A DNA stretch of 64,000 nt from a virus (taxonomy: Duplodnaviria; Heunggongvirae; Uroviricota; Caudoviricetes). Made by a program: the position numbers and the translations under genes. Positions 1,584 through 58,574 of this stretch are shown one piece after another; within the stretch, counting starts at the first letter, position 1, and every line of letters starts with the position of its first letter. The notes beneath the pieces are model-generated. The model made no database searches. It had not been told where the DNA came from and saw nothing but the letters and a program-made list of their open reading frames with translations. Location of the stretch: the IMG/VR virus record IMGVR_UViG_3300031414_000001, positions 240,437 through 304,436 of that record. One strand, 5' to 3'.

Positions 1584-2510
1584 TTAGAAGTTACCGTACT
1601 CGACTTGAAGTACTTTCAACTTCAGCAGTTTACGCCACATGCGAACGACTTGATCGCGGTCATCGTAAACTTTTACAACGTTGAACTGGTCAAAGACATT
1701 GTTCATGTACAGTTCGTACTTCACAATATCATCGGAACGACTATCTTCAGCACCACGCATAAAGATATGATCATACTCAACGCCATGCTTTTTCAGCCAG
1801 GCTTCGGTATCTTCTTTACACGTTTCGTGACGACCACTCATGATGATCACGGTACGACCGAGATAAGCACGTTCCGCATGAACGGACAGAATTACTTCTG
1901 GATCTGGATCATCTACGGAAACTTTCGTTTCTTCGTATGGTCCACGTTTACCATTCATGTGAGCCAAAGTACCGTCAATGTCAACAACGATGGCTTCAGG
2001 AAGATCCGTGTTCGTTGGTACTGGAGCATTAAAAGCACTGTAGAAGTACTTTTCTGCCATACCGTCAATCACTTCTTCCGGTACTGACTTTTCACGAAGC
2101 AGGTTACGTTCTTTACACTGTTTGACGTACTCCTTAACAGCAAAGAATTCGTGGATGAAAGTTTTACCTTTCTTGAATTCTTCAAAGAAGTTTTGTTCTT
2201 TGTAAGTATAACCGTGCTCTTTGGCGAACTCTTTCCACTTCTCACGAACGGAAGGATTCAGGTTTGTGTCACCAACAATGATGTTCCACTTGTTAGCAGC
2301 AGCATGAACCGCAGCACTGTACTGAGCGTTTTGCACGTACTGTTCGTTATCTTTGCGGAACTTATAGTTGCTATGGGAACCTGCCATTGTTTGGCGAATG
2401 TCATCAAGGTTTACAATAACAGTCTTTGACCGTGCTGATTTCACTTGTTCATTCGCCCAGGTGGTCTTACCGCACCCTGGCAACCCGATTGTTACTGTTA
2501 CTTGTGGCAT
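1584..2510 (-). CDS. pnk: polynucleotide 5'-kinase/3'-phosphatase (T4 PseT/Pnk family)
   Basis: N-terminal P-loop GLPGCGKTTWA. C-terminal HAD phosphatase motifs DIDGTLA...MNGKRGPY. Colinear similarity to T4 Pnk through the C-terminus (...DDRDQVVRMWRKL...). Confidence 0.9.
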   Translation of the reverse strand: MPQVTVTIGLPGCGKTTWANEQVKSARSKTVIVNLDDIRQTMAGSHSNYKFRKDNEQYVQNAQYSAAVHAAANKWNIIVGDTNLNPSVREKWKEFAKEHGYTYKEQNFFEEFKKGKTFIHEFFAVKEYVKQCKERNLLREKSVPEEVIDGMAEKYFYSAFNAPVPTNTDLPEAIVVDIDGTLAHMNGKRGPYEETKVSVDDPDPEVILSVHAERAYLGRTVIIMSGRHETCKEDTEAWLKKHGVEYDHIFMRGAEDSRSDDIVKYELYMNNVFDQFNVVKVYDDRDQVVRMWRKLLKLKVLQVEYGNF

Positions 2511-2724
2511 TTTCTTTTCCTATTCCAAATTTATCAGAGAAAATTTTCAATACGTGCTCGGACAGACGAATACTCGCAGTATCCTCACGTGAACTGTATT
2601 TCAACGGTGTCCATTCTAACCCATTTGAATCGAGAAAGTCAAGCCCACGGAAGTAATCTTTTAACGAATTAAATTTGATTACAGTCATATCCTGGACGAT
2701 GCTATGTTGCACTTGTACTTTCAT
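2467..2724 (-). CDS. hypothetical protein (85 aa)
   Basis: ORF overlapping the pnk start; operonic. Confidence 0.4.
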   Translation of the reverse strand: MKVQVQHSIVQDMTVIKFNSLKDYFRGLDFLDSNGLEWTPLKYSSREDTASIRLSEHVLKIFSDKFGIGKENATSNSNNRVARVR

Positions 2725-2735
2725 GTGATTCTCCG

Positions 2736-2960
2736 TTAGATTATAATGTACTTGTCATGGTACTTCATCGTCAAATTGAAGAATGCTCCTTCGTCGAAGT
2801 AGAATTCACCATCGACAATAAAGGCCACGTCACCTATATTTCTTACATATTCTAGCATCTGACGCATTGTGTAAAGTGTCAGTGCTGTATTTGGGATAAC
2901 TGAAAATTCCTGATCTCGGTATAGCACTTTATGCGTTTGTAATGTTACTTGATTACTCAC
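2736..2960 (-). CDS. hypothetical protein (74 aa)
   Basis: Intact ORF in the early operon. Confidence 0.45.
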   Translation of the reverse strand: MSNQVTLQTHKVLYRDQEFSVIPNTALTLYTMRQMLEYVRNIGDVAFIVDGEFYFDEGAFFNLTMKYHDKYIII

Positions 2961-3192
2961 GAGCGTATCTTCCTAAATCATAAATTTTTGGTTTTTTGTT
3001 TTTGGGCTTACGTTCCTTCTTATACGCAGATGAACTAACTCCAAAAGTATTTTTAAGACGCTTGACAGATTTCTGAACCCCTTTCCTTGAGCGTTCAGAC
3101 TGTTTCGCGTCTATCTCTTGTAGTATTCTTCTATGTTCTTCAGGAGTTCGTACTTCGCCCTTTGTTGCTTTATACTTTGGTTTAGCCATCAC
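2953..3192 (-). CDS. small highly basic (Lys/Arg-rich) protein, possible nucleic-acid binding
   Basis: 79-aa ORF with K/R-rich composition (KPKYKATKGE...KKERKPKNKKPK). Confidence 0.5.
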   Translation of the reverse strand: MMAKPKYKATKGEVRTPEEHRRILQEIDAKQSERSRKGVQKSVKRLKNTFGVSSSAYKKERKPKNKKPKIYDLGRYARE

Positions 3193-3224
3193 TACTCCTT
3201 GTGGTAGGCTATTTAGAAGTACTG

Positions 3225-4373
3225 TTAAACTTCGAAATCCTTCAGTACTTCTTTCATGTATTTTAGCATCACACCCTTGTAATCAACAGGACGTTGTTGA
3301 TACAGGCTGAACGCAATACCTGGCTTACCAAGTTCGTTAGGCAGAACCTTCTGAACCTGTAAGGCATACTCTTTACGTTCAAGATGCTTGTTCTGATTGT
3401 AAAACGCTTCACTTTCAGTGACTAAAGCATTATAGCACGAAAATACAAGCTGTTCCATTTTTTCAATCTTTTTCATTGCGTACACATCAGTACTGAACAT
3501 CTGCTTCAGGTCGTCGGACGCACCCTGTACTACTGTTTCGTACAAGCGTGAATCAACGTTAATACCGTCCTTAGTAAAGTGCAGAGCACAGTACCAGTCA
3601 GTTTTAATCTTACAAATGCGACCATCTTTCAGAATCAATACGAAACCTTCAATGTCCGTCATCTCACGACATGCTTCAATGCTTTCGAACAATGTTTCTT
3701 TCATTGGGAATGTTTCGTCAATATCACCGAACTTAGCTGATACTGAACGTGCGTACAACTCAGGGAATACCTCTTTCAAAGCATTACCCACCAGCATTTC
3801 ACCAGTATGACGATGGCGAACATTCAGTACTGTTAATCCGTCTTCTTGATACGGAAGAACAATACGATACTCTGGTGATGTATATTCGAGATTCACAGTG
3901 TAACCAAGAATCTCAGCTTGATATACATCCTCATAGAATGCTTTATCCGCATGAAGCATCGCAGTACTGTTAATCGCGTGATCCGATTGTAATGATGCCT
4001 GAGATTTGGTACGGACTTTATAATCTTCATCCATAAAGGTACTGATGATTGAGCCGTCCAGTTTATCCATCACAACAGCGATTTCAGTACTTAAAGTACT
4101 CTTATCAAACATAGTGAATGGATTCTCATACGCATTAAAGAACTTCTTCGGTGGTCGCGAAGCAATGGTGATATAGTTACCTTCAGCATCTACTTTAAAC
4201 ATAGAGCCGCGACCTTCCAGAGCACTAGGCTCAAGGAAATCTGAATAACTCGCCAGGCGATATGAGAAAATACGGAAGATACCGCCACCAACAGAGGTGA
4301 AGTCTTTCCACGAAAACGCATCGTTCTTAGCGGTTAAAGCCATCAGATCGTTAAAAATAGTTTCAGTACTCAT
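3225..4373 (-). CDS. rnlA: RNA ligase 1 (T4 RnlA family)
   Basis: Colinear similarity to T4 Rnl1 over the whole length: FRIFSY..ASYSDFL.P.ALE.RG.MF, ligase lysine motif region, KSDWY, ASDDLK.M. Confidence 0.9.
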   Translation of the reverse strand: MSTETIFNDLMALTAKNDAFSWKDFTSVGGGIFRIFSYRLASYSDFLEPSALEGRGSMFKVDAEGNYITIASRPPKKFFNAYENPFTMFDKSTLSTEIAVVMDKLDGSIISTFMDEDYKVRTKSQASLQSDHAINSTAMLHADKAFYEDVYQAEILGYTVNLEYTSPEYRIVLPYQEDGLTVLNVRHRHTGEMLVGNALKEVFPELYARSVSAKFGDIDETFPMKETLFESIEACREMTDIEGFVLILKDGRICKIKTDWYCALHFTKDGINVDSRLYETVVQGASDDLKQMFSTDVYAMKKIEKMEQLVFSCYNALVTESEAFYNQNKHLERKEYALQVQKVLPNELGKPGIAFSLYQQRPVDYKGVMLKYMKEVLKDFEV

Positions 4374-4404
4374 TCTTTAATCCTCATTAATTAAGTAAGA
4401 GAAC

Positions 4405-4433
4405 AGTCTACACAAAAGCAGCCTGTCTGTCAA
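4405..4433 (-). promoter_or_regulatory. sigma70-type early promoter for rnlA (TTGACA-N17-TAGACT)
   Basis: Reverse complement reads gagTTGACAgacaggctgcttttgtgTAGACT, followed by the leader and the AGGATTAAAG RBS. Confidence 0.55.
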
Positions 4434-4434
4434 C

Positions 4435-4728
4435 TCAATATTCGCAAGTGTCGTCAATATTTTTCTGTAGATCGTACTTGTACATGCGAACTTTCAATTT
4501 CAAATCCGCAGGATAATGATAACATATTCCGTTATCATGACGCAAGTAAACCATGTCTACATCACGACCATAACGATTGTAATTAGTTCTTAGTAAATGT
4601 TGCGGCGGTTTTGTATGAGTTATTGTGTACAATACTTCGCCTGATGGCTTCTGTACAACTGTACCTTCTTCAATTCTACCAGCATCTACAAGTACTGTAA
4701 GGTAATCTACACCAGTTAAATCAATCAT
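4435..4728 (-). CDS. hypothetical protein (97 aa)
   Basis: Intact ORF, co-oriented. Confidence 0.45.
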   Translation of the reverse strand: MIDLTGVDYLTVLVDAGRIEEGTVVQKPSGEVLYTITHTKPPQHLLRTNYNRYGRDVDMVYLRHDNGICYHYPADLKLKVRMYKYDLQKNIDDTCEY

Positions 4729-5024
4729 TTGTCATCCCACATAACTACGTCATACAAGTTATGATATAATTCTTCAACACTCATATAAACCATTAATTCA
4801 GTACTTTCAGGAATCATATTAATGTTTCCTTGTTCATCAACTAAGAATACATTATCAACATCACATTTGATTTCCTGTTGATTCTCTCCGTAGATTTTAA
4901 TACTTCTACGTAATGTATATTTCTTTTGTCCAGTTGCTTTTGTTACTGTAGCACCATCACCAACGTATTGTGCTCTTAGTAATAATCGCATATCACCTGG
5001 CATGTATCGTACATTTATAGACAT
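4725..5024 (-). CDS. hypothetical protein (99 aa)
   Basis: Intact ORF with 4-nt overlap with the downstream gene. Confidence 0.45.
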   Translation of the reverse strand: MSINVRYMPGDMRLLLRAQYVGDGATVTKATGQKKYTLRRSIKIYGENQQEIKCDVDNVFLVDEQGNINMIPESTELMVYMSVEELYHNLYDVVMWDDK

Positions 5025-5063: not shown

Positions 5064-5795
5064 TTAGAATAGTTGAACCATACCCATTAGTACTGAATCA
5101 TCAGGACGTGAATATGATTGTTTCTCAATTTTGAAATAGAATGAATCCGCGTCCTCTAAACAATAACGCTTCTTCAAACATCTAGTATAAGTTGAATTGT
5201 TTGGGTGAACCCATTCATAAATCTGAATTCCTTCTTCATTATATCCAACTATACTTGTACGGTTTCCCTCATGTCTATTGAAGTTCTTGCTACGCTCAGT
5301 GAAGTACTTGACTTCTGTCATAACAGGTTCTTCATATTCATAAGGCATTTCAGTTAGACGGAAGTAATAATGTGATTCATCCTCTGAATAACCCACTAAG
5401 ATAGTTTCAGTACTGCTAACTCCGTAGTGTTCTAAACTTTTAGATTCATTATCTTTTATATCCTGAAGCACCTCTCTTAGTACTTCAACTGGATCACCAT
5501 TTGGATTGGTTACTCCAGAAATCCTACGTTCTATAATAGGATCTGTATATCGTCTTTCTTCCTGAACTACACCGTTCATGAAATGCCCAACGAACTCGTC
5601 CTTATATGTTTTAACCGAGTATTGCGTACTGTTTAAAGTACTGAATACATCTGCCAACATATTAGCTTGTCCACACTGTACTCCATCTACACTTCCAGCA
5701 GTTGCGTATTCTGCCATAACGGAAGTCAATGTTTGAAAGTTTGACATATTGAGTTCATTAGCCATTTCTGTTGCAAATTTAATACGATCAATCAT
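5064..5795 (-). CDS. hypothetical protein (243 aa)
   Basis: Long intact ORF; no recognisable motif. Confidence 0.5.
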   Translation of the reverse strand: MIDRIKFATEMANELNMSNFQTLTSVMAEYATAGSVDGVQCGQANMLADVFSTLNSTQYSVKTYKDEFVGHFMNGVVQEERRYTDPIIERRISGVTNPNGDPVEVLREVLQDIKDNESKSLEHYGVSSTETILVGYSEDESHYYFRLTEMPYEYEEPVMTEVKYFTERSKNFNRHEGNRTSIVGYNEEGIQIYEWVHPNNSTYTRCLKKRYCLEDADSFYFKIEKQSYSRPDDSVLMGMVQLF

Positions 5796-32633: not shown

Positions 32634-32855
32634 TTAAAAGTACTCCCTCGTTTCGATACAATAATAGTACTACACACCGAGCCATCACGCAAGGAATTTA
32701 TTCAAAAACTTTTCCTTGACAACGCCGCTCTGTTCCCCTATAATTACTACATAGACGCGAGAAAGCGGAAACCCCAGGGGGTGGCAAAATGTATCTATAG
32801 GTTAGAAAGCTGTATATAAAAACAGTACTGGATATTTCACCAGTACTTTATGTTT

Positions 32856-33155
32856 TTAGCTGAAAATGTAACGTGATCCGCCGAAGTAATCAACGTTGAC
32901 CATAACAGCTTTATCTGTTACAATCGTGTGTTGCGTAGTCCAGCCAATCAGGTTAGTACCATCGAATAAGGCCATATGACCATAACCATATTCGACCAGT
33001 GCTGTAAAGTCGCCTTTTTCTTCAACGACACGCCAGGCATAGGGGGAACCGTCTTTCAGCCACAACGCACAATCTGAATAATCAGGACTGAGCTTATGCT
33101 CTTTGTCAGAAAGTACTTTTGCGACTTCTGCCATCAGTACTGCTAACTTATCCAT
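32856..33155 (-). CDS. hypothetical protein (99 aa; start at MDKLAVLM, GAGAGGATAGACAA RBS)
   Basis: The track ORF's MLIECEYFIM prefix duplicates the 31050-31100 leader sequence. Confidence 0.45.
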   Translation of the reverse strand: MDKLAVLMAEVAKVLSDKEHKLSPDYSDCALWLKDGSPYAWRVVEEKGDFTALVEYGYGHMALFDGTNLIGWTTQHTIVTDKAVMVNVDYFGGSRYIFS

Positions 33156-51069: not shown

Positions 51070-51843
51070 ATGTTACCATTTCCACAATTAGTAAAGTACG
51101 GGAATGTTAGAGCACCAGAATGGTACACCGGTTCAGATGTTCTAATGGCGTTCGATTCTGTTAATTTTGTTCCTAGTACTGGATTTAACACAAATGGCTT
51201 TACTGATTATAAAGGTAAAGTAATGACTTCTGATGCTCAAAATACTGGTAAATTACCAGCTAAAGCTGATGGAACAAATAGTATCTTAAACACCTTTGGT
51301 TCATATGGTATTATATTATATGGATCAGGTATTGTAGCTGCTAATTCTCAAATACTACCATCATTAACACAACAAGATCATACGGTAGATTTCTGGTTTA
51401 GAAATACTACTACAGGTAATGCTAATCTTGAGATGGTTCCATTTATGTGGTATAATGTAATGGCTACAAATAATGATAAATGGTGTATGTGGGCTTATAT
51501 GAAAGATGGTCAGGGTCCAAGATTTACTAACAATAATAGTAATACATTAAGAACTTTATCATTATATTCCACCATGTACAACAATACAAACTGGAACCAT
51601 TATGCTTATGTATTTGTTAAATCTACTAATACTATATCTATATTTCTTAATGGAATCAAAGTAGATACATTTACTTATAATATCATTACTCCTGCTGCTG
51701 GTTCAAAATGTGGTATTGCTGGACATGTGAATAGTACTGATGCTAATGGAGGTAGCGGTGCTCACACAGCAATAGATCGATTCAGAATTCGAAATACAGC
51801 AGTATGGACAGCAAACTTCAACACTAGTACAATATACCCATAA
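51070..51843 (+). CDS. MLPFPxL-tagged ConA/LamG-like lectin-fold protein (257 aa)
   Basis: Tag MLPFPQLVKYGN; C-terminus AIDRFRIRNTAVWTANFNTS. Confidence 0.65.
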   Translation: MLPFPQLVKYGNVRAPEWYTGSDVLMAFDSVNFVPSTGFNTNGFTDYKGKVMTSDAQNTGKLPAKADGTNSILNTFGSYGIILYGSGIVAANSQILPSLTQQDHTVDFWFRNTTTGNANLEMVPFMWYNVMATNNDKWCMWAYMKDGQGPRFTNNNSNTLRTLSLYSTMYNNTNWNHYAYVFVKSTNTISIFLNGIKVDTFTYNIITPAAGSKCGIAGHVNSTDANGGSGAHTAIDRFRIRNTAVWTANFNTSTIYP

Positions 51844-51853
51844 GGAGATAAAG

Positions 51854-52480
51854 ATGTTACCATTTCCAATTATAAACAAATTAACAGAACGTCCATCAGA
51901 AAATACTATTATTACATTTCTTAAAACTGGTGGAACTCTTACAAAAACTAATATAAATGAATCTCCTAATGATTTTTTCACAGAATCATATAACGCAATT
52001 CAATTCAATTCAGGATCAGCAAATATTCAAGTAGGTTCAGGTGGGATTCCTGCTATATGGCAAATAGGGAACAGTACTAACTTCCGCATTGAAACATACG
52101 TAAAGCTTTCAAATACTGGAACTAAAATACTATGTGGTAATCTTCAGAACAATGGTACTGGTTCATGGTGGATGGTATTAAACAATGTCTTTCAGAACAG
52201 TACAGCAGTTGCTTTAGATGGATTTAGTACTACTGGTGCTGTACAACGTTTCCATTTCACTGGAATGACAACATTACCAATTAATGTATGGAATCATATT
52301 GTGCTTGAACGTATAGGAAGTACTATAACATGTTATATCAATGGAACATCTATTGGTTCATTAACTATGACATTGGGTTTCCAGACACATTCAAACGCAT
52401 TTAGAGTAGGCGACAGTACTGACAATGCTTATAGCTTTAATGGTATTATAGATAGTTTCAAAATGACAATGAATGCATAA
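51854..52480 (+). CDS. MLPFPxL-tagged jelly-roll-like protein (208 aa)
   Basis: Tag MLPFPIINKL (divergent); C-terminal FNGIIDSFKM. Confidence 0.6.
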   Translation: MLPFPIINKLTERPSENTIITFLKTGGTLTKTNINESPNDFFTESYNAIQFNSGSANIQVGSGGIPAIWQIGNSTNFRIETYVKLSNTGTKILCGNLQNNGTGSWWMVLNNVFQNSTAVALDGFSTTGAVQRFHFTGMTTLPINVWNHIVLERIGSTITCYINGTSIGSLTMTLGFQTHSNAFRVGDSTDNAYSFNGIIDSFKMTMNA

Positions 52481-52490
52481 GGAGATTAAT

Positions 52491-53654
52491 ATGCTACCAT
52501 TTCCAATTATAAGTCAGTTAACAATACAACCTGCTAAGCCAACAATACAAGCATTAAACTTTGTTGCGAGTGGCGTGTATCTGTTATACAGTACTGGAGA
52601 GTTATTTTTTAGAGGTCGAGGAAATTCAGGTTATAAAGGCGATGGAACAAATACCGCTGCTCAATATAATTCATGGAATCCATCTAATACTAATGTTATC
52701 ATGGTTAGTACTGGCCCTGGCCCTGGTGTAGTAATTAAGAATGATGGTACTTATTGGACTACAGCAAGTTCTAATTATATGGGAATAAGTACTGGTTACG
52801 TTCAGTATAAATGGTCTGATTGTACTTCTAAATTCACAGCAATTACTAGCAATCCTGGTAATATTAAGCAAATAGTTTCTACTGGTGGTGGAGTTTTTGT
52901 TCTATTGTATTCAGGAGAACTGTATGCTATTGGTACTAATTCTAATGGTTGTTTAGGTTTAGGTACATCAACGTCTTACTCAGTAACTAACTTCACATTA
53001 GTTGGTACTAACGTAAAGAAAATAAGTGCTAGTTCTAATCACGCAATGTATATTAATAATAACAATACTCTATTCAGTACTGGATATAATATCATTGGAC
53101 AATTAGGTAATAATAGTACTACTACAGGAATATCATTTACTCAACTATCAGCAGGGCAATTAACAGCTTATCCATTTGTTCAGGATGTTGTATGTATTTC
53201 TAACAGTACTGTTGTTATTTCTAGACAAACTGCGGAATCAGCAAATATAATGTTAGCATGTGGTGCAGCATTATATTCAGGTACAGGAACAACGAGTGGT
53301 GGATATACTACATTTGTATACATTGGTACAATGAGTGGTACTACAGCTAGAGTTAATGCGTTGAGTTCAACTATGGGTTCAGCCAATAACAATATGATAA
53401 TGACAGAGAAAGGATTATATGCTATTGGTTCAGGACAATATTATCAGCTAGGTAATGGCAATGCTAATGATGTGTCAGTATGGACAGCAGTTCAAAGTTT
53501 ACCAACTACAGATTACAGTACGATCAAGTTTTTTGGTTCGAGTTCAGAAGGTTCTGCCTTTGTTTACCTGGACAAAGTTTACATTTTTGGTGTTTCTGGT
53601 CAATGGGGAACAAGTAGATCCTTACCAACGTTATCAACCGATACACCATATTAA
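52491..53654 (+). CDS. MLPFPxL-tagged RCC1-like beta-propeller protein (387 aa)
   Basis: Real start MLPFPIISQL after AAGGAGATTAAT. Repeats GTNSNGCLGLGTSTS, GYNIIGQLGNNSTTTG. Confidence 0.7.
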   Translation: MLPFPIISQLTIQPAKPTIQALNFVASGVYLLYSTGELFFRGRGNSGYKGDGTNTAAQYNSWNPSNTNVIMVSTGPGPGVVIKNDGTYWTTASSNYMGISTGYVQYKWSDCTSKFTAITSNPGNIKQIVSTGGGVFVLLYSGELYAIGTNSNGCLGLGTSTSYSVTNFTLVGTNVKKISASSNHAMYINNNNTLFSTGYNIIGQLGNNSTTTGISFTQLSAGQLTAYPFVQDVVCISNSTVVISRQTAESANIMLACGAALYSGTGTTSGGYTTFVYIGTMSGTTARVNALSSTMGSANNNMIMTEKGLYAIGSGQYYQLGNGNANDVSVWTAVQSLPTTDYSTIKFFGSSSEGSAFVYLDKVYIFGVSGQWGTSRSLPTLSTDTPY

Positions 53655-53661
53655 TGCAAAT

Positions 53662-53692
53662 AAAAAAACCCGCCTTGAGCGGGTTTTTTTGT
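53662..53692. terminator. bidirectional rho-independent terminator between convergent genes (A7-CCCGCcuugaGCGGG-T7)
   Basis: Perfect 5-bp GC stem flanked by A7 and T7 between the + cluster end (53654) and the - gene end (53694). Confidence 0.7.
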
Positions 53693-53693
53693 T

Positions 53694-54206
53694 TTACTTA
53701 GAAGGTAATGATTCTACCAATTCAACGTAACGATTGAATGCTTCATTAACTACTGGATCTGAATAACCAACGGTTATGGCTTCAATATCAGTACTACGAA
53801 GACCAATCAACTGACCTTCAGTATATCCAGTACTGTTAGAAGCATAGAACTTCTCAAACGGAGCAAACATATTGATACGACGAGCATCTTCATGCTGGGT
53901 ATCAGTATGGAAATGTTCATAAAACGAATGTTTTACAAATTCCGTATGAGTGATCTCCACGATTTGAAGTTTATACTTAATCGTAACTTCTTTCTTTTCA
54001 TCGTGTAGTTCTTTGAGCCTGAACTCTGCGTTTTCCAGGGTTCCGAAACATAATGGTTGTTGCCATTCACGATCACGTTCACTGAGGCTTACGAAGCGAT
54101 AACCGCCCATTGTATCGAACAACACAGTACTGGCATCATTATCCTTACAGATATAGAATGATGATGTACGTTGTTGTGGAAGATGAACAGTACTAATAAC
54201 TTTCAT
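53694..54206 (-). CDS. hypothetical protein (170 aa), co-transcribed with ygiB-like gene
   Basis: Intact ORF 1 nt downstream of the YgiB-like gene. Confidence 0.45.
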   Translation of the reverse strand: MKVISTVHLPQQRTSSFYICKDNDASTVLFDTMGGYRFVSLSERDREWQQPLCFGTLENAEFRLKELHDEKKEVTIKYKLQIVEITHTEFVKHSFYEHFHTDTQHEDARRINMFAPFEKFYASNSTGYTEGQLIGLRSTDIEAITVGYSDPVVNEAFNRYVELVESLPSK

Positions 54207-54207
54207 A

Positions 54208-54867
54208 TTAACCCCCGAAGCTACGTGAACCAGAAGAATGTGAACTGAAAGAACTATGAGATGAAGAACTCATTTTACTTACAGTACCGCCAAATCCACC
54301 ACGAGTGGTTGTAGTAGTCGTAGCAGCTTTAGGTGCTAATGAACTTTTAGGAACACTAGCAGTACCTTTAGAAGTAAAGGAACCAAATGAAGTACCTTTG
54401 CTATCTACGAACTTACCGTACATTGGAGAGTTGTAACTCTTTGAACTGTACAGTGGTTGGCTCGGATAGTTAGCATGAGAAGAACTATATCCGCTCATTA
54501 ACGGGAACCACATAAATGAACTATGTGAACCGTTAGAAGTACTTACGTTGTTCGCAGTACTGGCTTGTGAGTTACATTGACCGATGCCAAATTCATCTTC
54601 ACAATCTTTCTGAGAAGAATACTTAGGTGCGACCTTTGCGTTTTGTGCTAATGCGTTCTGGTAATCCAGAGCACATTGATCTTTCGCAGCTTGGTTAGCA
54701 GCACTGCGTTCACAATCCTGGATAGTGTTATACACTGAAACGTTCTCTGCTTCATCGCAGCCAGTAAGGAACATAGAACCACCAACAGCGATGAAGATAG
54801 CACTATATTTCCAGAAGGTGCGTACTTTGCGAAAACGGTCATAGTTCATTACTTTAGTACGTTTCAT
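54208..54867 (-). CDS. ygiB: YgiB-like (DUF1190) lipoprotein
   Basis: Lipobox FLTGC. Colinear similarity to E. coli YgiB along the length (SVYNTIQDCERSAAN, APKYSSQKDCEDEFGIGQC, FMWFPLMSGY, QPLYSSKSYNSPMYGKF, VPKSSLAPKAATTTTTTRGGFG, ...SRSFGG C-terminus). Confidence 0.75.
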   Translation of the reverse strand: MKRTKVMNYDRFRKVRTFWKYSAIFIAVGGSMFLTGCDEAENVSVYNTIQDCERSAANQAAKDQCALDYQNALAQNAKVAPKYSSQKDCEDEFGIGQCNSQASTANNVSTSNGSHSSFMWFPLMSGYSSSHANYPSQPLYSSKSYNSPMYGKFVDSKGTSFGSFTSKGTASVPKSSLAPKAATTTTTTRGGFGGTVSKMSSSSHSSFSSHSSGSRSFGG

Positions 54868-54917
54868 TTACTTCCCTCTCAATTAAAAACTCCCCGTACA
54901 TTGTACGGGGAATGGTA

Positions 54918-55235
54918 TTACTGCTGGTCTTTCTTGACTTCTTCGAACTCAGCGTCTGATTCTTTGGTTTCGTCAACCTTAGTTTCGTCGTGCTTCGCCG
55001 ATTCAACATCGGTCAGAATTTCCTGTTCGATCTCTTGGTACTCATAGTACGCCGTGTACGCAAGGTACAGGATGAAAATGAGCACAAGACCCAGCCACGA
55101 TGCCCACAGCAGACCAGACAGGGCGAGAGCGATATACAGTGGTGAGCATTCGATGAATTGTTTGAACTCCACCTTTACTTCATTCAGTACACGCTTACCT
55201 ACAAGTACTACAACATCTTTAGTGTTCTCGTCCAT
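54918..55235 (-). CDS. small membrane protein with acidic C-terminal tail (105 aa)
   Basis: One or two TM segments (LYIALALSGLLWASWLGLVLIFILYLAY) then an E/D-rich tail. Confidence 0.5.
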   Translation of the reverse strand: MDENTKDVVVLVGKRVLNEVKVEFKQFIECSPLYIALALSGLLWASWLGLVLIFILYLAYTAYYEYQEIEQEILTDVESAKHDETKVDETKESDAEFEEVKKDQQ

Positions 55236-55277: not shown

Positions 55278-55676
55278 TTACTCAGAGTCCGTCAAGGACT
55301 TTTTACGAGCTTTTTCTTCCCGCCGTGCTATGCTAGTATTACGAAGTGTAGTTAATCCTTTCACCAGTACTGCGAACACAGCAAGGAGAACAATATAACC
55401 AATACACATAGAACCGAACAGATTAGCCATGATTACAAAGAACATGGAACCAGTCAATACTTCCATCACCTTACACAAACAACCAATAATTGTCAGTAAG
55501 ATAATAGGTGAAGTTGCTTCCAGTGGGATGTAATTACCCAGGAAGTTAATCATACGATTGAAGGTATCGCTGACTTTATCATAGCCGAATGACCAATCAA
55601 CTGCGAACAGTACAGCAATACCAATCCAGAACCAGGTATACACACTGGCAATGGTTTCTAGAACAGGATGAAACAT
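55278..55676 (-). CDS. integral membrane protein (132 aa), basic C-terminus
   Basis: Four hydrophobic helices; C-terminal RREEKARKKSL. Confidence 0.5.
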   Translation of the reverse strand: MFHPVLETIASVYTWFWIGIAVLFAVDWSFGYDKVSDTFNRMINFLGNYIPLEATSPIILLTIIGCLCKVMEVLTGSMFFVIMANLFGSMCIGYIVLLAVFAVLVKGLTTLRNTSIARREEKARKKSLTDSE

Positions 55677-56026
55677 TATTTTTTACCTCGTTTTGATAAA
55701 CACCAATCCCTGATACATGATAAGAATGCCAGGAACATACATACACCAACTACCAGTACTACAATACATAACCACAGAGTCCAGATAGCATAGAAGAATG
55801 CCACTGGTGGAGCTACAGCACCCCATAGTAAGAATGGGATAGTAAGTATTACTGACAGTACTACATGGACAATACAAGTACCTACAGCATCATCTGTATC
55901 AAAGAATTGTTCTTCTAAGAAGTCATATAGATCAGTTCCTAGAGTCCACAGTACTAATACGATGACAGCCATTACCATGATGATATATGACGGCACAGGT
56001 GCGTAAGTCAAGAACAAATTATACAT
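55676..56026 (-). CDS. small membrane protein paralog A (116 aa, ...CLSKRGKK)
   Basis: 3 TM helices, GTDLYDFLEEQFF loop, basic C-terminal tail. Confidence 0.55.
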   Translation of the reverse strand: MYNLFLTYAPVPSYIIMVMAVIVLVLWTLGTDLYDFLEEQFFDTDDAVGTCIVHVVLSVILTIPFLLWGAVAPPVAFFYAIWTLWLCIVVLVVGVCMFLAFLSCIRDWCLSKRGKK

Positions 56027-56370
56027 TAGATTTTACCTCGTTTCGCTAAGCACCATGCGTTGAATGAATGTAATAAATGGCGAACTAAGCGAACACTGTA
56101 CATGAACAGTATGATTGAACACCATAAGTTGAACGCAGCCCAGCCATAGATAAGATTTTCAGTGAAGATAAGCCCAAAGGCATTAATAACTAATACCCAC
56201 CAGAAGTAGATCTTCATGAAGTCTAAGGAGTTCCACCATAACTTCTTGAAGCGATCATACCAGTCAGTACCGAACAGCCACATCATGTATACTAACAAGG
56301 TCAGTACTACATATACAGCAGAAGGGTAGTAGATGTATGGTTGTACGAAAGTCCAGATTGATTCAATCAT
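56026..56370 (-). CDS. small membrane protein paralog B (114 aa, ...CLAKRGKI)
   Basis: Same topology; GTDWYDRFKKLWW loop. Confidence 0.55.
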   Translation of the reverse strand: MIESIWTFVQPYIYYPSAVYVVLTLLVYMMWLFGTDWYDRFKKLWWNSLDFMKIYFWWVLVINAFGLIFTENLIYGWAAFNLWCSIILFMYSVRLVRHLLHSFNAWCLAKRGKI

Positions 56371-56705
56371 ATGCGGCGTCCTCGTTTATCTGCGAAGTAC
56401 TGACGAAGATCCATAATCTTACCATGAATAAAGATGGCTAAAGTTATGATTAGTACAATAGTGAAATAGCCTAAGTGGACATAAGGGGCTTTCCCAAATC
56501 CATCAAATGTTAGTCCGATTACTATTGAGGCAATACTAATACCTATGCTGAATAATACATGCATGAACAACGGTAGTCCTTCCGCAAATTTAGCACTACT
56601 ATAGTAATAGTCAGCACAGGTTAACCACCCAATACCAATTACTACTAATGAAGCTATATTCAGGAATAAACAAACCAGTTCAAGTACTTCAAAGATGTTT
56701 GTCAT
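56367..56705 (-). CDS. small membrane protein paralog C (112 aa, ...FADKRGRRI)
   Basis: LTCADYYYSSAKF loop, basic tail. Confidence 0.55.
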   Translation of the reverse strand: MTNIFEVLELVCLFLNIASLVVIGIGWLTCADYYYSSAKFAEGLPLFMHVLFSIGISIASIVIGLTFDGFGKAPYVHLGYFTIVLIITLAIFIHGKIMDLRQYFADKRGRRI

Positions 56706-56753: not shown

Positions 56754-57533
56754 TTACTTTACTTCTTCCAGGTACTGACTACGTTCGTAGATCCAGTCCA
56801 TGTAGTGAAGCAGATGGCTACGCTTACGCAGCGTCGGATTAGTACGGATTTCATGAATCGCTTCATCCCAGGTAATGGAAGTGCGGTTCAGTTCAGTCAG
56901 TACATCGCGACAGTAACGTTGACCTGCATCACAAGCACCAGCACGGTTCAACGCACGAGTGCTGATAGTGCGGTTTTTGAAGTCACGCCCGATTTTGCGG
57001 AATTCTTCGGTAGTCAGGTAACGCAGGTTACGAGTAACATCGTTACGAGTTTTCAGAATCGCAAGACCTTCATCCGTGAACATGAAGTGACGGATCGCAG
57101 GGTTGCGAGAACTGATCAACACATCATTGAATTCACGCCAATCCAGAAGTTTGAGTGCTTCAGTAACTGGCACGGCATCTTGCGTACATGCGATTTGAGA
57201 ACCGAAACGACGAGCGGTACGATTGTTACCGAGAATGTCTTTGATCACAGTGTACGGCATCTGAATGTCAGCAAGTACATTCCAGCCATCCTGGTAGTAC
57301 GCAGTTTCCAGAAGTTCAATCCACTGATCAGTACTGAGATTAGTTGGCGTCGCACGGTTGTTTTTGATCAGTGATTTGATGATCGGCTTAGACATTTTGA
57401 ACAGGTAAGTGTTCAGTACTTCAGTGTCTACACCTTCCAGATCACAAATACGAATGGATTTCCATTGTACGTGCGGCAGAAGTGCTTTGTCCAGTGTCAG
57501 AAGTGTTGCGTCTTCAATTTGAAGTTTAATCAT
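56754..57533 (-). CDS. hypothetical soluble protein (259 aa) inserted in the membrane-protein array
   Basis: Long intact ORF; no motif. Confidence 0.5.
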   Translation of the reverse strand: MIKLQIEDATLLTLDKALLPHVQWKSIRICDLEGVDTEVLNTYLFKMSKPIIKSLIKNNRATPTNLSTDQWIELLETAYYQDGWNVLADIQMPYTVIKDILGNNRTARRFGSQIACTQDAVPVTEALKLLDWREFNDVLISSRNPAIRHFMFTDEGLAILKTRNDVTRNLRYLTTEEFRKIGRDFKNRTISTRALNRAGACDAGQRYCRDVLTELNRTSITWDEAIHEIRTNPTLRKRSHLLHYMDWIYERSQYLEEVK

Positions 57534-57559: not shown

Positions 57560-57898
57560 TTAACGACCACGTTTAGACCAGAAATACTTCCTGGACGTTT
57601 CGAACCAATTGAAAAGATTGAATGCGACAAACAGAACAATTAAGATCATGTTTATCACGCCTACAATACCATATGCGAAGTTATGTGTAAACTCAGCACT
57701 CCTGGCCTGAGTGACAGCACCTAAGCCCATAATAAAGATCCAGAAGAACCACGCAATAGCATTACAAATTGCGAGAACACCGACGAAATCTTTATTCAGT
57801 TTAAAGTAGTAGTTAGCACCTGTCCAGTACCCGACGAGGGCAACAATCAGAAATGCTAATACTACGAATGCCAGTACTACACAGATTTCAATAAACAT
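57560..57898 (-). CDS. small membrane protein paralog D (112 aa, ...FWSKRGR)
   Basis: WTGANYYFKLNKDF loop, basic tail. Confidence 0.55.
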   Translation of the reverse strand: MFIEICVVLAFVVLAFLIVALVGYWTGANYYFKLNKDFVGVLAICNAIAWFFWIFIMGLGAVTQARSAEFTHNFAYGIVGVINMILIVLFVAFNLFNWFETSRKYFWSKRGR

Positions 57899-58236
57899 TA
57901 CAGTTTACCCCGCTTTTTGCCGAAGTACTCTTTCAGTTCACCGAAACCATAATAACATCCGAAGCAAACAATCACCACGTACATTAGCAATGATACGCCA
58001 GTACACCACATTAAACCGTAGCGAAAGCCTTTCTCGATGCTTTGTTCAACTAAACTGACGAGTGCCATGTTTACCAGGAAACACATCGCCTGAATACCGA
58101 TAGCAAGTTTTAACATTTGCTTCGTATCAGATTCCAGTTTAGTATAATAGTCGGCGTATGTCAAGTTCCCGACGAGATAAATTATTGAGATCGCGACCCA
58201 CACAAACAAGTTGATAGGGGCTAAAATGTCGTACAT
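57898..58236 (-). CDS. small membrane protein paralog E (112 aa, ...FGKKRGKL)
   Basis: LTYADYYTKLESD loop, basic tail. Confidence 0.55.
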   Translation of the reverse strand: MYDILAPINLFVWVAISIIYLVGNLTYADYYTKLESDTKQMLKLAIGIQAMCFLVNMALVSLVEQSIEKGFRYGLMWCTGVSLLMYVVIVCFGCYYGFGELKEYFGKKRGKL

Positions 58237-58238
58237 AG

Positions 58239-58574
58239 TTACACCACCTTATTACGTTTACGTCCGAAATACTGACGAATGCCACCTGAATGACGCACGA
58301 ACAGTACTACAGCACCAATTGTTAATACCCATGAACATACGCAGCTAATACCAACGTACATTTCCCAGGGACTGATTTTTTTTGCGGCATCAGGTAAAGC
58401 AGCAGCGAATATCACGAAGGATATTACAGTGGCTACTAATGAAAGTAGTTTGTAATCACTGATGAAACTATCTGAGAACTTATCATAGTAATCAGCATAA
58501 GTTAAGTAACCAATGTACAGTACTACAACTGACACTAACCAAATGTGTGTGACAATTAATCCATAGAGTTCCAT
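58239..58574 (-). CDS. small membrane protein paralog F (111 aa, ...FGRKRNKVV)
   Basis: LTYADYYDKFSDS loop, basic tail. Confidence 0.55.
   Translation of the reverse strand: MELYGLIVTHIWLVSVVVLYIGYLTYADYYDKFSDSFISDYKLLSLVATVISFVIFAAALPDAAKKISPWEMYVGISCVCSWVLTIGAVVLFVRHSGGIRQYFGRKRNKVV

Follow-up and report, generated by a model that had tools for sequence, protein, structure and literature searches.

The locus analysed here raises the question of whether a giant phage carries a copy of the host lipoprotein gene ygiB, and where in the envelope of the infected cell its product would act. The window, the 64-kb stretch of DNA examined in full, belongs to a Mimasvirus-like giant phage. Two adjacent ORFs described in the initial annotation were found on its minus strand, at 54208-54867 (219 aa) and 53694-54206 (170 aa); the first had been read as a phage copy of YgiB and the second as its co-transcribed neighbour.

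The 219-aa DUF1190/YgiB-family protein

The gene and the two short elements on which the analysis turned are the following:

54208..54867, minus strand: DUF1190/YgiB-family prolipoprotein gene, 219 aa (Pfam, PHROG, YgiB alignment)
54751..54759, minus strand: codons TGC-GAT-GAA for Cys37, Asp38 (+2) and Glu39 (+3), a predicted Lol-avoidance signal (sequence, survey of +2 residues)
54211..54216, minus strand: codons for the C-terminal Gly218-Gly219 (alignment of 63 phage and bacterial homologues)

The homology to YgiB withstood database searches. The 219-aa product matched Pfam DUF1190 (PF06693) with E = 8.7e-36 and 124.1 bits (gathering score 22) over profile positions 2-157 of 159, and PHROG 3739 with E = 1.9e-58, and it was 42% identical to E. 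coli K-12 YgiB over 208 residues (tblastn E = 1.6e-36). Alignment to the NCBIfam model NF008655 / PRK11653 was full length and scored 201.6 bits, below the equivalog cutoff of 223; the product is a member of the family that falls short of NCBI's standard for a YgiB equivalog. The dN/dS values of the gene in comparison with three orthologues were 0.06-0.13, denoting strong purifying selection. Altogether, the match is far beyond chance, and the 219-aa ORF truly belongs to the DUF1190/YgiB family as a phage member that selection maintains.

The protein is laid out as a basic n-region (MKRTK..RFRK), an h-region, an LTGC lipobox, an alpha/beta core and a Ser-rich tail with terminal GG; in the AF2 model the core reached pLDDT values of about 80-88 and the tail was disordered. 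The lipobox claimed earlier is present: applying the pattern [LVI][ASTVI][GAS]C, together with a basic n-region and a hydrophobic h-region, we found the n-region MKRTKVMNYDRFRKVRTFWK, the h-region YSAIFIAVGGSMF and LTGC with Cys37, a position identical in E. coli YgiB. This E. coli protein (UPF0441/DUF1190, PF06693, NF008655) has the length and block order of the phage protein, and every conserved block previously listed as evidence of colinearity was recovered in the alignment. Both proteins have MKRTK..FRK, the Cys37 lipobox, four further cysteines, APKY, PLM.GY, QPLYSS, TRGGFG, the Ser-rich tail and the terminal GG. Among 63 phage and bacterial homologues, the cysteines following the lipobox (C52, C65, C89 and C98), G191-F192-G193 of the TRGGFG block and Gly218 were invariant, and Gly219 was at least 90% conserved; conservation of the signal-peptide n-region (MKRTK..FRK) was unusually high in phage and bacterial alignments. 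On the other hand, residues +2/+3 are Asp-Glu in the phage protein and Glu-Lys/Gln in E. coli YgiB, the Met/Gly-rich segment is eroded in the phage, and the phage gene has a phage-like base composition and no ygiC neighbour, whereas E. coli ygiB lies in a tolC-ygiB-ygiC operon. A second E. coli protein of the same Pfam family, YjfM, is encoded in the PspA-like operon yjfIJKLMC, adjoins the ligase gene yjfC and also ends in GG. Its identity to the phage protein was 24%, with a different N-terminus and six cysteines, and in type the phage protein clearly falls with YgiB rather than YjfM.

An old phage family with two states at position +2

Homologues were found in 118 phage records. Phage genes of this kind are already catalogued, as PHROG 3739, in many large phages: CPT_Moon148 of Citrobacter phage Moon was described in 2015 as a "YgiB-like lipoprotein" whose role in infection was given as unknown (Edwards et al. 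2015, PMC4319498), and in Klebsiella phages KNP2, BIS47 and KpS11 the family is annotated as 'DUF1190 domain-containing protein'. Moon and the other PHROG 3739 phages resemble the window in carrying the same family and in being large myoviruses of Enterobacterales. The enterobacterial host proposed in the initial annotation fits these data, with nearly all the 118 records from phages infecting Enterobacterales and the named bacterial relatives coming from that order. The description of the gene as a phage copy of a host gene holds as regards homology and fails as regards recent copying. A recent capture from the host was rejected because the best bacterial relatives are only about 44-47% identical, GC3 is phage-like (0.32) and the phage lineage is old and diversified, the D-type phage clades (see below) falling outside the bacterial clade in the tree. 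Within the DUF1190/YgiB family, the gene is part of a long-established phage lineage.

The closest record is XbC2, whose DUF1190 protein (XbC2_579) is about 94% identical to that of the window, compared with only 69% for the product of a neighbouring gene. The orthologue in Erwinia phage Kaldavass is CDS0066, and both orthologues are annotated as 'hypothetical protein'. XbC2 and Kaldavass have the same flanking genes on both sides, the upstream hairpin and the downstream 170-aa gene as the window; they differ from it in possessing a small Lys-rich ORF of ~55 aa overlapping the DUF1190 start, which the window lacks. XbC2 carries the label Xanthomonas phage despite the enterobacterial host inferred here.

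Examination of the residue following the lipobox cysteine separated phage from bacterial copies. In the bacterial sample, obtained by a profile search with bacterial sequences only and hence biased towards Enterobacteriaceae, the +2 residue was Glu in 80/80 species, and ygiC was located no more than 300 bp downstream of ygiB in 80/80 loci, so that the ygiB-ygiC pairing noted earlier for E. coli is real and extends to the whole sample. Glu was also present at +2 in named YgiB proteins of Erwiniaceae, Yersiniaceae, Morganellaceae and Budviciaceae. Bacterial copies read Cys-Glu followed by Gln or Lys, vs Cys-Asp-Glu in the gene of the window. Among 29 phage copies, +2 was Asp in 22, that of the window included, Glu in six and Asn in one, and Asp at +2 was mostly followed by Asp or Glu at +3. 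This acidic pair is kept across phage clades just 35-45% identical to one another. D-type copies, found in jumbo phages of the GAP32, BF, RaK2 and Ea35-70 types, have lost most of the Met/Gly-rich segment of YgiB, with a mean of 1.9 Met in that segment compared with 5.8 in bacteria and 5.1 in E-type copies. In contrast to the D-type gene of the window, Moon, KpS8, 4MG and CR3-like phages are of the E-type, with the host-like Cys-Glu and Met-rich segment.

Asp at +2 followed by Asp, Glu or Gln is a strong Lol-avoidance signal of E. coli as well as other Enterobacteriaceae, under a sorting rule that has exceptions (PMC6469965). Compatibility with the outer membrane was taken to mean the absence of Asp at +2, and with its Asp38 the phage protein is not compatible in this sense. 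Since Cys-Asp-Glu corresponds to the enterobacterial avoidance signal, the phage protein most likely stays at the inner membrane, and its membrane is probably different from that predicted for host YgiB. The elements new in this work are the Cys-Glu/Cys-Asp split at +2, the erosion of the Met/Gly-rich segment, the absence of ygiC, the membrane-protein module described below and the purifying selection.

Genes around the DUF1190 gene

The surroundings of the gene contain the following features:

53662..53690, minus strand: strong terminator hairpin, 13-pair stem with A- and T-run flanks (terminator scan)
53694..54206, minus strand: gene for a 170-aa protein of a small phage-only family (ORF list, database searches)
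54889..54913, minus strand: hairpin CCCCGTACAATGTACGGGG followed by a T-run, just 5' of the DUF1190 ribosome-binding site (terminator scan)
54918..55235, minus strand: gene for a 105-aa small membrane protein, directly upstream of the DUF1190 gene (ORF list)
55278..56705, minus strand: four tandem genes for paralogous multi-pass membrane proteins of ~112-132 aa (PHROGs 19792, 16874 and 13405, 'membrane protein')
56754..57533, minus strand: gene for a conserved 259-aa protein, phrog_27654 (E = 3.5e-91), heading the membrane-protein block (PHROG)
57560-58574: three further membrane-protein paralogues (jackhmmer)

The 170-aa gene starts 1 nt past the DUF1190 stop codon (TAA-T-ATG) and is probably translationally coupled to it, judging from this spacing. 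The co-transcription claimed earlier is plausible because the two genes have no terminator between them and the second is followed by a strong one, placed between the converging 170-aa and RCC1-like genes; the 1-nt gap and the lack of an intervening terminator stand as observed, and joint transcription itself keeps the status of a plausible prediction. No match to the 170-aa protein was obtained in Pfam, NCBIfam, PHROG, PADLOC or PDB, and neither a signal peptide nor a transmembrane segment was apparent in its sequence. Its family comprised 15 clusters among 1.84 billion proteins, and its AF2 model had a pLDDT of 58.5. Relatives occur without DUF1190 in the distantly related loci L106 and L107, and the gene is not an obligate partner of the DUF1190 gene. 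The suggested comparison with YgiC gave a negative result, with no Pfam or NCBIfam match and no tblastn similarity. An analogue of YgiC was also rejected for this ORF on account of its lack of similarity to YgiC/YjfC, its length (170 vs 386 aa), its tiny family and its occurrence without DUF1190.

Upstream, the hairpin at 54889..54913 is kept in the alignment with XbC2, Kaldavass and the related locus L005, the latter with a compensatory change in both sides of the stem. In related loci L005-L011, equivalents of the 105-aa gene (~92-117 aa, with an AKRT..E.K motif) precede DUF1190, and the 259-aa protein also holds its position before it. Seven membrane-protein paralogues were detected in the window by jackhmmer, and 5-7 in each related giant phage. 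The DUF1190 gene of GAP32-type giant phages comes last or second to last in this conserved module of small membrane proteins, and PHROGs assigns the neighbouring small membrane proteins to the category 'moron, auxiliary metabolic gene and host takeover'. No PADLOC profile matched either the DUF1190 or the 170-aa protein, or the membrane proteins beside them. A relationship of the upstream paralogues to YjfL/DUF350, which would mirror the yjfL-yjfM arrangement, was rejected with no match in Pfam, jackhmmer or tblastn searches; likewise, the 259-aa and 262-aa proteins flanking the membrane-protein arrays showed no mutual similarity and are not treated as paralogues.

The 64-kb window contained no ygiC gene, nor did 16 viral loci inspected to a distance of 4 kb from DUF1190. 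A ligase gene elsewhere in the window was discarded as well, tblastn with YgiC and YjfC giving chance matches only.

Candidate roles in the infected cell

A YgiB-like gene is retained, under strong purifying selection, by many large phages unrelated to one another, and therefore the protein must matter during infection. The mimic, moron, exclusion and biofilm roles suggested in the initial annotation are candidates. We consider that the protein is most likely an accessory envelope factor of the infected cell's inner membrane, either a relocated version of the host YgiB pathway or its competitor, a reading to which we give a probability of roughly 55%. The prolipoprotein would be made, exported and lipid-modified at Cys37. 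Bacterial YgiB, with its Cys-Glu, is predicted to end up in the outer membrane, and the phage protein, with Cys-Asp-Glu, would most likely be tethered to the inner membrane from its periplasmic side, exposing there an alpha/beta domain that contains cysteines, together with a Ser-rich, disordered tail whose last residues are Gly-Gly. Relative to bacterial YgiB, the D-type subfamily has shed both the ygiC ligase gene alongside and the greater part of the Met/Gly-rich segment and has retained the four cysteines, TRGGFG, MKRTK..FRK and the terminal GG. YgiB and YgiC are conserved enterobacterial proteins linked to envelope stress. YgiB is an envelope protein: it is regulated by Cpx (bioRxiv 10.1101/2022.08.05.503015), has been found in tolA-mutant vesicles (PMC7973035) and, when overexpressed, leads to lower persister levels (PMC13435647). 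By itself, the gene of the window adds a further member to a phage family already catalogued. The phage copies taken together constitute a natural experiment in two states, one host-like (Cys-Glu, Met-rich) and the other with a retention signal and without the Met-rich segment or the ligase gene, and the contrast between them provides a handle on the site of action of YgiB and on its essential parts.

If the phage protein were a plain functional substitute, supplying YgiB activity during host shutdown in the same place and with the same job, Asp at +2 would be inconsequential. Full-length colinearity, the conservation of cysteines, TRGGFG, N-terminal motif and GG, the retention of the host-like Cys-Glu and Met-rich segment in six phage lineages and the exceptions to the +2 rule (PMC6469965) are all consistent with such a substitute, but Asp followed by an acidic +3 residue persists across the divergent phage clades against Glu in 80/80 species of the Enterobacteriaceae-biased sample, those clades also show erosion of the Met/Gly-rich segment, and the score remains under the YgiB equivalog cutoff, so we regard it as unlikely. 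A lipoprotein of superinfection exclusion, one that would deny incoming phages their receptor or the entry of their DNA, seems very unlikely to us. T5 Llp and Cor are superinfection-exclusion proteins and serve as the model here, and a phage-encoded lipoprotein in an accessory region, beside membrane proteins of the PHROGs moron category, would suit such a function. Host ygiB is moreover co-transcribed with tolC, and TolC is a receptor for specific phages (PMC11762307). However, an inner-membrane protein could not mask an outer-membrane receptor, no exclusion or defence family was matched (none in PADLOC; the sole PHROG match is a family of unknown function), and a family that is the chromosomal operon partner of ygiC in bacteria is atypical for an exclusion gene. 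The succession of a small membrane protein and a lipoprotein superficially resembles a separated spanin pair, in which the 105-aa protein would be the inner-membrane and the DUF1190 protein the outer-membrane subunit for the final step of lysis. We find this hardly credible: the mature phage protein, about 180 aa, seems large for an outer-membrane spanin subunit, a conserved hairpin resembling a terminator lies between the two genes, relatives have an extra small ORF between them, and the family is a bacterial chromosomal one paired with ygiC. A spanin pair would need an outer-membrane-sorted lipoprotein adjoining or embedded in the membrane-protein gene, a configuration that the DUF1190 gene does not show, and Asp at +2 speaks against outer-membrane sorting (PMC6469965).

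A more specific proposal is that the phage protein serves as a substrate or decoy of the host ligases YgiC/YjfC, with the terminal Gly-Gly as the acceptor carboxylate and perhaps guidance by the N-terminal motif, the phage copy being modified by the host enzymes or competing with host YgiB for them. In its full form, D-type proteins would have been re-targeted to the inner membrane by a single Glu to Asp change at +2 and the Met/Gly loss, would act there together with the small membrane proteins and, through their C-terminal Gly-Gly and perhaps the N-terminal motif, would be substrates or decoys of the ligases. We consider both forms quite unlikely. If the full form were true, the search for what these enzymes modify in the cell would end with the DUF1190 proteins; YgiC and YjfC have peptide-spermidine ligase activity and an unknown physiological substrate (Pederick 2023, as cited in PMC11762307). 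DUF1190 genes adjoin ligase genes in 80/80 species of the biased bacterial sample and in both E. coli pairs, ygiBC and yjfMC, the terminal Gly is present in essentially all homologues, including those of ligase-less phages, and the n-region is unusually conserved. The proposal is nevertheless wholly inferential, and our literature search gave no paper linking DUF1190 to the ligases as substrate. With the ligase presumably in the cytoplasm and the C-terminus in the periplasm, any modification would need to come before export. Another explanation for the conserved terminus could be that the tail-specific protease recognises it, YgiB accumulating in a tsp mutant (PMC13435647). Ochrobactrum phage vB_OspM_OC bears on both sides of the argument: its genes p242-p240 group a DUF1190 gene with SprT-like peptidase and YjfC-like ligase genes, but its DUF1190 protein has a short ordinary signal peptide, Asn at +2 and an Ala-Gly end. 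The lipoprotein is phage-borne in both systems, and the ligase partner kept in phage OC is absent from the phage region of the window. Phage-borne YgiC homologues were found in 144 records, mostly of Acinetobacter, Aeromonas, Pseudomonas and Bacillus phages, and the phages bearing them are nearly disjoint from those bearing DUF1190.

Identity and distribution of the window YgiB homologue

The gene under study and the open reading frame (ORF) directly downstream of it are as follows:

54208-54867, minus strand: gene for the 219-aa DUF1190 protein (ORF and Pfam match)
53694-54206, minus strand: gene for the 170-aa protein (ORF)

Comparison of the 219-aa protein with Pfam family DUF1190 (PF06693) resulted in a match over nearly the whole profile (E = 8.7e-36, 124 bits; gathering score, 22), and PHROG 3739, annotated as 'unknown function', was also matched (E = 1.9e-58). 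With the NCBIfam YgiB equivalog model NF008655 the protein scored 201.6 bits, under the cutoff of 223. Its identity to YgiB of E. coli K-12, as annotated in the tolC-ygiB-ygiC locus, was 42% across 208 residues, whereas that to the E. coli paralogue YjfM was only 24%. The predicted lipid-modified cysteine of its lipobox (LTGC), Cys37, occupies exactly the same position in E. coli YgiB. An alignment of 63 homologues revealed that this residue, four more cysteines, the G-F-G of TRGGFG, the terminal Gly-Gly and the N-terminal MKRTK..FRK are invariant or nearly so. On the strength of these matches, alignments and conserved residues, the initial annotation of a phage YgiB homologue with a lipobox proved correct in every detail that could be checked (Pfam, PHROG, alignments and lipobox position); the gene is real and correctly identified.

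The signal-peptide n-region, MKRTK.I...FRK (residues 1-14, window positions 54826-54867), was near-invariant from E. coli to phage proteins only ~30% identical overall, and was absent from YjfM and from the protein of Ochrobactrum phage vB_OspM_OC. Cleaved signal peptides are not usually so conserved, and this suggests a role for the n-region ahead of export or in the course of it.

Parts of two phage genomes, those of Xanthomonas phage XbC2 (genus Mimasvirus, 368 kb) and Erwinia phage Kaldavass (367 kb), shared 80-88% DNA identity and their gene order with the window; judged by sequence, the window comes from a giant phage of this group. A tblastn search located a DUF1190 homologue, in single copy, in 118 phage records, almost all of large Enterobacterales myoviruses (GAP32, CBB, BF, fHe-Yen9, RaK2, Ea35-70 and Moon/Merlin types, the CR3/CR9 group and Klebsiella KpS8/KB57). 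Some records already carry the annotation 'putative lipoprotein' or 'DUF1190 domain-containing protein', and the 2015 announcement of phage Moon reported a YgiB-like lipoprotein, calling its role in infection unknown (PMC4319498). Phage YgiB-like genes are an already known kind, and the window gene is a new orthologue in this catalogued family, its protein being ~94% identical to that of XbC2.

Against this 94% identity, the downstream neighbour proteins of the two phages are 69% identical, and the dN/dS of the DUF1190 gene was 0.06-0.13 in comparison with three orthologues. The nearest bacterial relatives of the protein showed ~44-47% identity, GC3 of the gene was phage-like (0.32), and several deep giant-phage clades fell outside the bacterial YgiB clade in a neighbour-joining tree. 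By these three criteria the gene has long resided in phages and was not newly copied from a host.

Two observations concern recorded hosts. Of the public relatives, XbC2 (OP292654.1) is the closest, and its record names Xanthomonas vesicatoria as the host. The phages most closely related to XbC2 infect Erwinia, and the family of its DUF1190 gene is otherwise almost confined to Enterobacterales phages. Either the recorded host or an exceptionally wide host range may merit checking. Furthermore, two DUF1190 proteins filed as Salmonella enterica (P0015) and Escherichia coli (P0050), from contigs 371 kb and 358 kb long, respectively, fell among the giant-phage clades of the tree, and these contigs are probably giant-phage genomes within bacterial assemblies.

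Genomic setting

The features surrounding the gene pair are all on the minus strand:

57560-58574, minus strand: three further membrane paralogues (PHROGs)
56754-57533, minus strand: gene for a 259-aa protein, phrog_27654 (PHROG match)
55278-56705, minus strand: four paralogous multi-pass membrane proteins, ~112-132 aa (PHROGs)
Upstream of DUF1190, minus strand: gene for a 105-aa membrane protein (ORF list)
54913-54889, minus strand: hairpin followed by a T-run, before the DUF1190 ribosome-binding site (terminator scan)
53690-53662, minus strand: strong terminator after the 170-aa gene (terminator scan and sequence)

The seven tandem membrane paralogues of the window belong to PHROGs 13405, 16874 and 19792, of which related giant phages carry 5-7 copies each; no relation to E. 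coli YjfL/DUF350 was detected. GAP32, CBB, BF, fHe-Yen9-04 and uncultured relatives share one layout: the 259-aa gene first, next three to five of the membrane paralogues, a ~100-aa membrane protein and finally DUF1190. The distant, RaK2-like phage phiKp_21 has a member of this membrane family (E = 7e-14) directly before DUF1190; the layout is absent from Ea35-70-type phages.

The hairpin at 54913-54889 is conserved: XbC2, Kaldavass and an IMG/VR relative share it, and its stem shows a compensatory change affecting both sides. Between it and DUF1190, these three phages carry an ORF of ~55 aa with a Lys-rich C-terminus (..RPKKKKKFGKKKK) that overlaps the DUF1190 start. Comparison of window positions 54868-54917 with XbC2 (4777-4994), Kaldavass (5089-5256) and the IMG/VR relative revealed that this ORF has been cleanly lost in the window, and the window DUF1190 gene therefore lies directly behind the ribosome-binding site of the lost ORF.

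The 170-aa gene starts 1 nt past the DUF1190 stop. For its product, Pfam, NCBIfam, PHROGs, PADLOC and the PDB sequences yielded no match, and the comparison with YgiC proposed in the initial annotation revealed no similarity to either YgiC or YjfC; an AlphaFold2 model was unusable (pLDDT 58.5). Only 15 clusters, almost all of 154-177 aa, were recovered when a profile was searched against 1.84 billion representative proteins. The gene follows DUF1190 only in Mimasvirus and BF-type phages, and two distant family members occur without any DUF1190 gene in a context comparable to that of the window (a small-protein array, the 170-aa-family gene and converging RCC1-like genes). The 170-aa gene is a neighbour of DUF1190, not a dedicated partner.

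On the plus strand at 51070-53654, three consecutive genes share the N-terminal motif MLPFP[QI][LI], the second with a LamG-like domain and the third with RCC1-repeat domains; in XbC2 and Kaldavass the corresponding arrays are longer. Their products appear to form an interchangeable set of receptor-binding or fibre proteins with a common attachment N-terminus.

Elsewhere in the window, the region 32717-32860 (plus strand), between two minus-strand ORFs, contains a promoter that fits the sigma-70 consensus perfectly (TTGACA, 17 nt, TATAAT), a stretch of ~45 nt (32739-32790) that is 94-98% identical to unannotated intergenic DNA of at least 24 otherwise distant giant phages (including 121Q, Sharanji, EC.P1, Turkey3 and SD-15_S21), and then a hairpin with a T-run. 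Its fold z-score was -2.15, and no Rfam family matched it. It could be a small RNA of ~100 nt, or a conserved early promoter with its leader.

Sorting signal and Met/Gly-rich segment

Asp at +2, the residue after the lipobox cysteine, followed by Asp, Glu or Gln is described as the strong inner-membrane retention (Lol-avoidance) signal of E. coli and other Enterobacteriaceae, a rule that is not absolute (PMC6469965); host YgiB is a predicted outer-membrane lipoprotein (PMC11762307). The +2 residue was Glu (Glu-Gln or Glu-Lys) in 80/80 bacterial species of a genome collection, all Enterobacteriaceae, and also in named proteins of Izhakiella, Leminorella, Serratia, Moellerella and Fukatsuia. In contrast, of 29 different sequences confirmed to lie in a phage context, 22 had Asp, six Glu and one Asn at this position; the Asp copies mostly have Asp or Glu next, the window protein reading Cys-Asp-Glu. 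Asp-type copies make up the jumbo-phage clades, whereas mid-sized phages (Moon, KpS8/4MG, CR3/CR9-like) have kept Glu and group with the bacterial clade, so the contrast reflects one or a few old changes, since maintained, rather than many independent events.

Low Met content in the Met/Gly-rich segment (WMPLMAGYMMGRMMGG; MWFPLMSGYSSSH in the window protein) goes together with Asp at +2, with means of 5.8 Met in bacteria, 5.1 in Glu-type and 1.9 in Asp-type phage copies. We infer that the window protein belongs to a distinct phage subfamily predicted to be retained in the inner membrane. As for the gene neighbourhood, ygiC lay ≤300 bp downstream of ygiB in all 80 bacterial species, and no ygiC gene was found within 4 kb at any of 16 viral loci.

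Candidate roles and a possible ligase connection

In the host, YgiB is under Cpx regulation, and Citrobacter rodentium deletion mutants have growth defects when exposed to gut-like stress (bioRxiv 10.1101/2022.08.05.503015). Persister levels drop about ten-fold when YgiB is overexpressed (PMC13435647). The protein has also been found in tolA-mutant vesicles (PMC7973035), and a phage-shock-protein survey describes DUF1190 as a 'metal-chelating lipoprotein' of PspA-linked polyamine operons (PMC11237479). These data point to the cell envelope and to no specific mechanism. The window protein is most likely an inner-membrane-anchored, YgiB-derived envelope factor, whose gene closes a set of genes for small membrane proteins of the phage. 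Rival readings are a plain substitute for YgiB, an exclusion lipoprotein and a ligase substrate or decoy; a spanin subunit is very unlikely. Only three points are new here, all cheap to test: the contrast between Asp and Glu at +2, the lost Met-rich segment and the lost ligase neighbour.

On the ligase reading, DUF1190 proteins may serve as substrates of YgiC and YjfC, with the phage copy using the host enzymes or competing for them. YgiC and YjfC are now named 'peptide--spermidine ligase' in RefSeq; a review (PMC11762307) credits this activity to Pederick et al. 2023 and calls the physiological substrate unknown. The possibility is raised by the ligase genes that adjoin DUF1190 genes in the two E. 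coli pairs and in all 80 species sampled, by the terminal Gly-Gly kept even in phage copies with no nearby ligase gene, and by Ochrobactrum phage vB_OspM_OC, in which genes for a DUF1190 lipoprotein, an SprT-like metallopeptidase and a YjfC-like ligase lie together (2477-4657 of the locus analyzed). However, no such link was found in the literature searched, and the topology is awkward, the enzyme being presumably cytoplasmic and the DUF1190 C-terminus periplasmic. Conservation of the C-terminus could just as well reflect recognition by tail-specific protease, since YgiB accumulates in a tsp mutant (PMC13435647). Phage-borne YgiC homologues were found in 144 records, mostly of Acinetobacter, Aeromonas, Pseudomonas and Bacillus phages, a set that hardly overlaps with the DUF1190-bearing phages; the Ochrobactrum phage was the only one seen in this analysis with DUF1190 beside a ligase partner. 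The SprT-like peptidase gene lying between the two may be a hint that the DUF1190 protein is processed.
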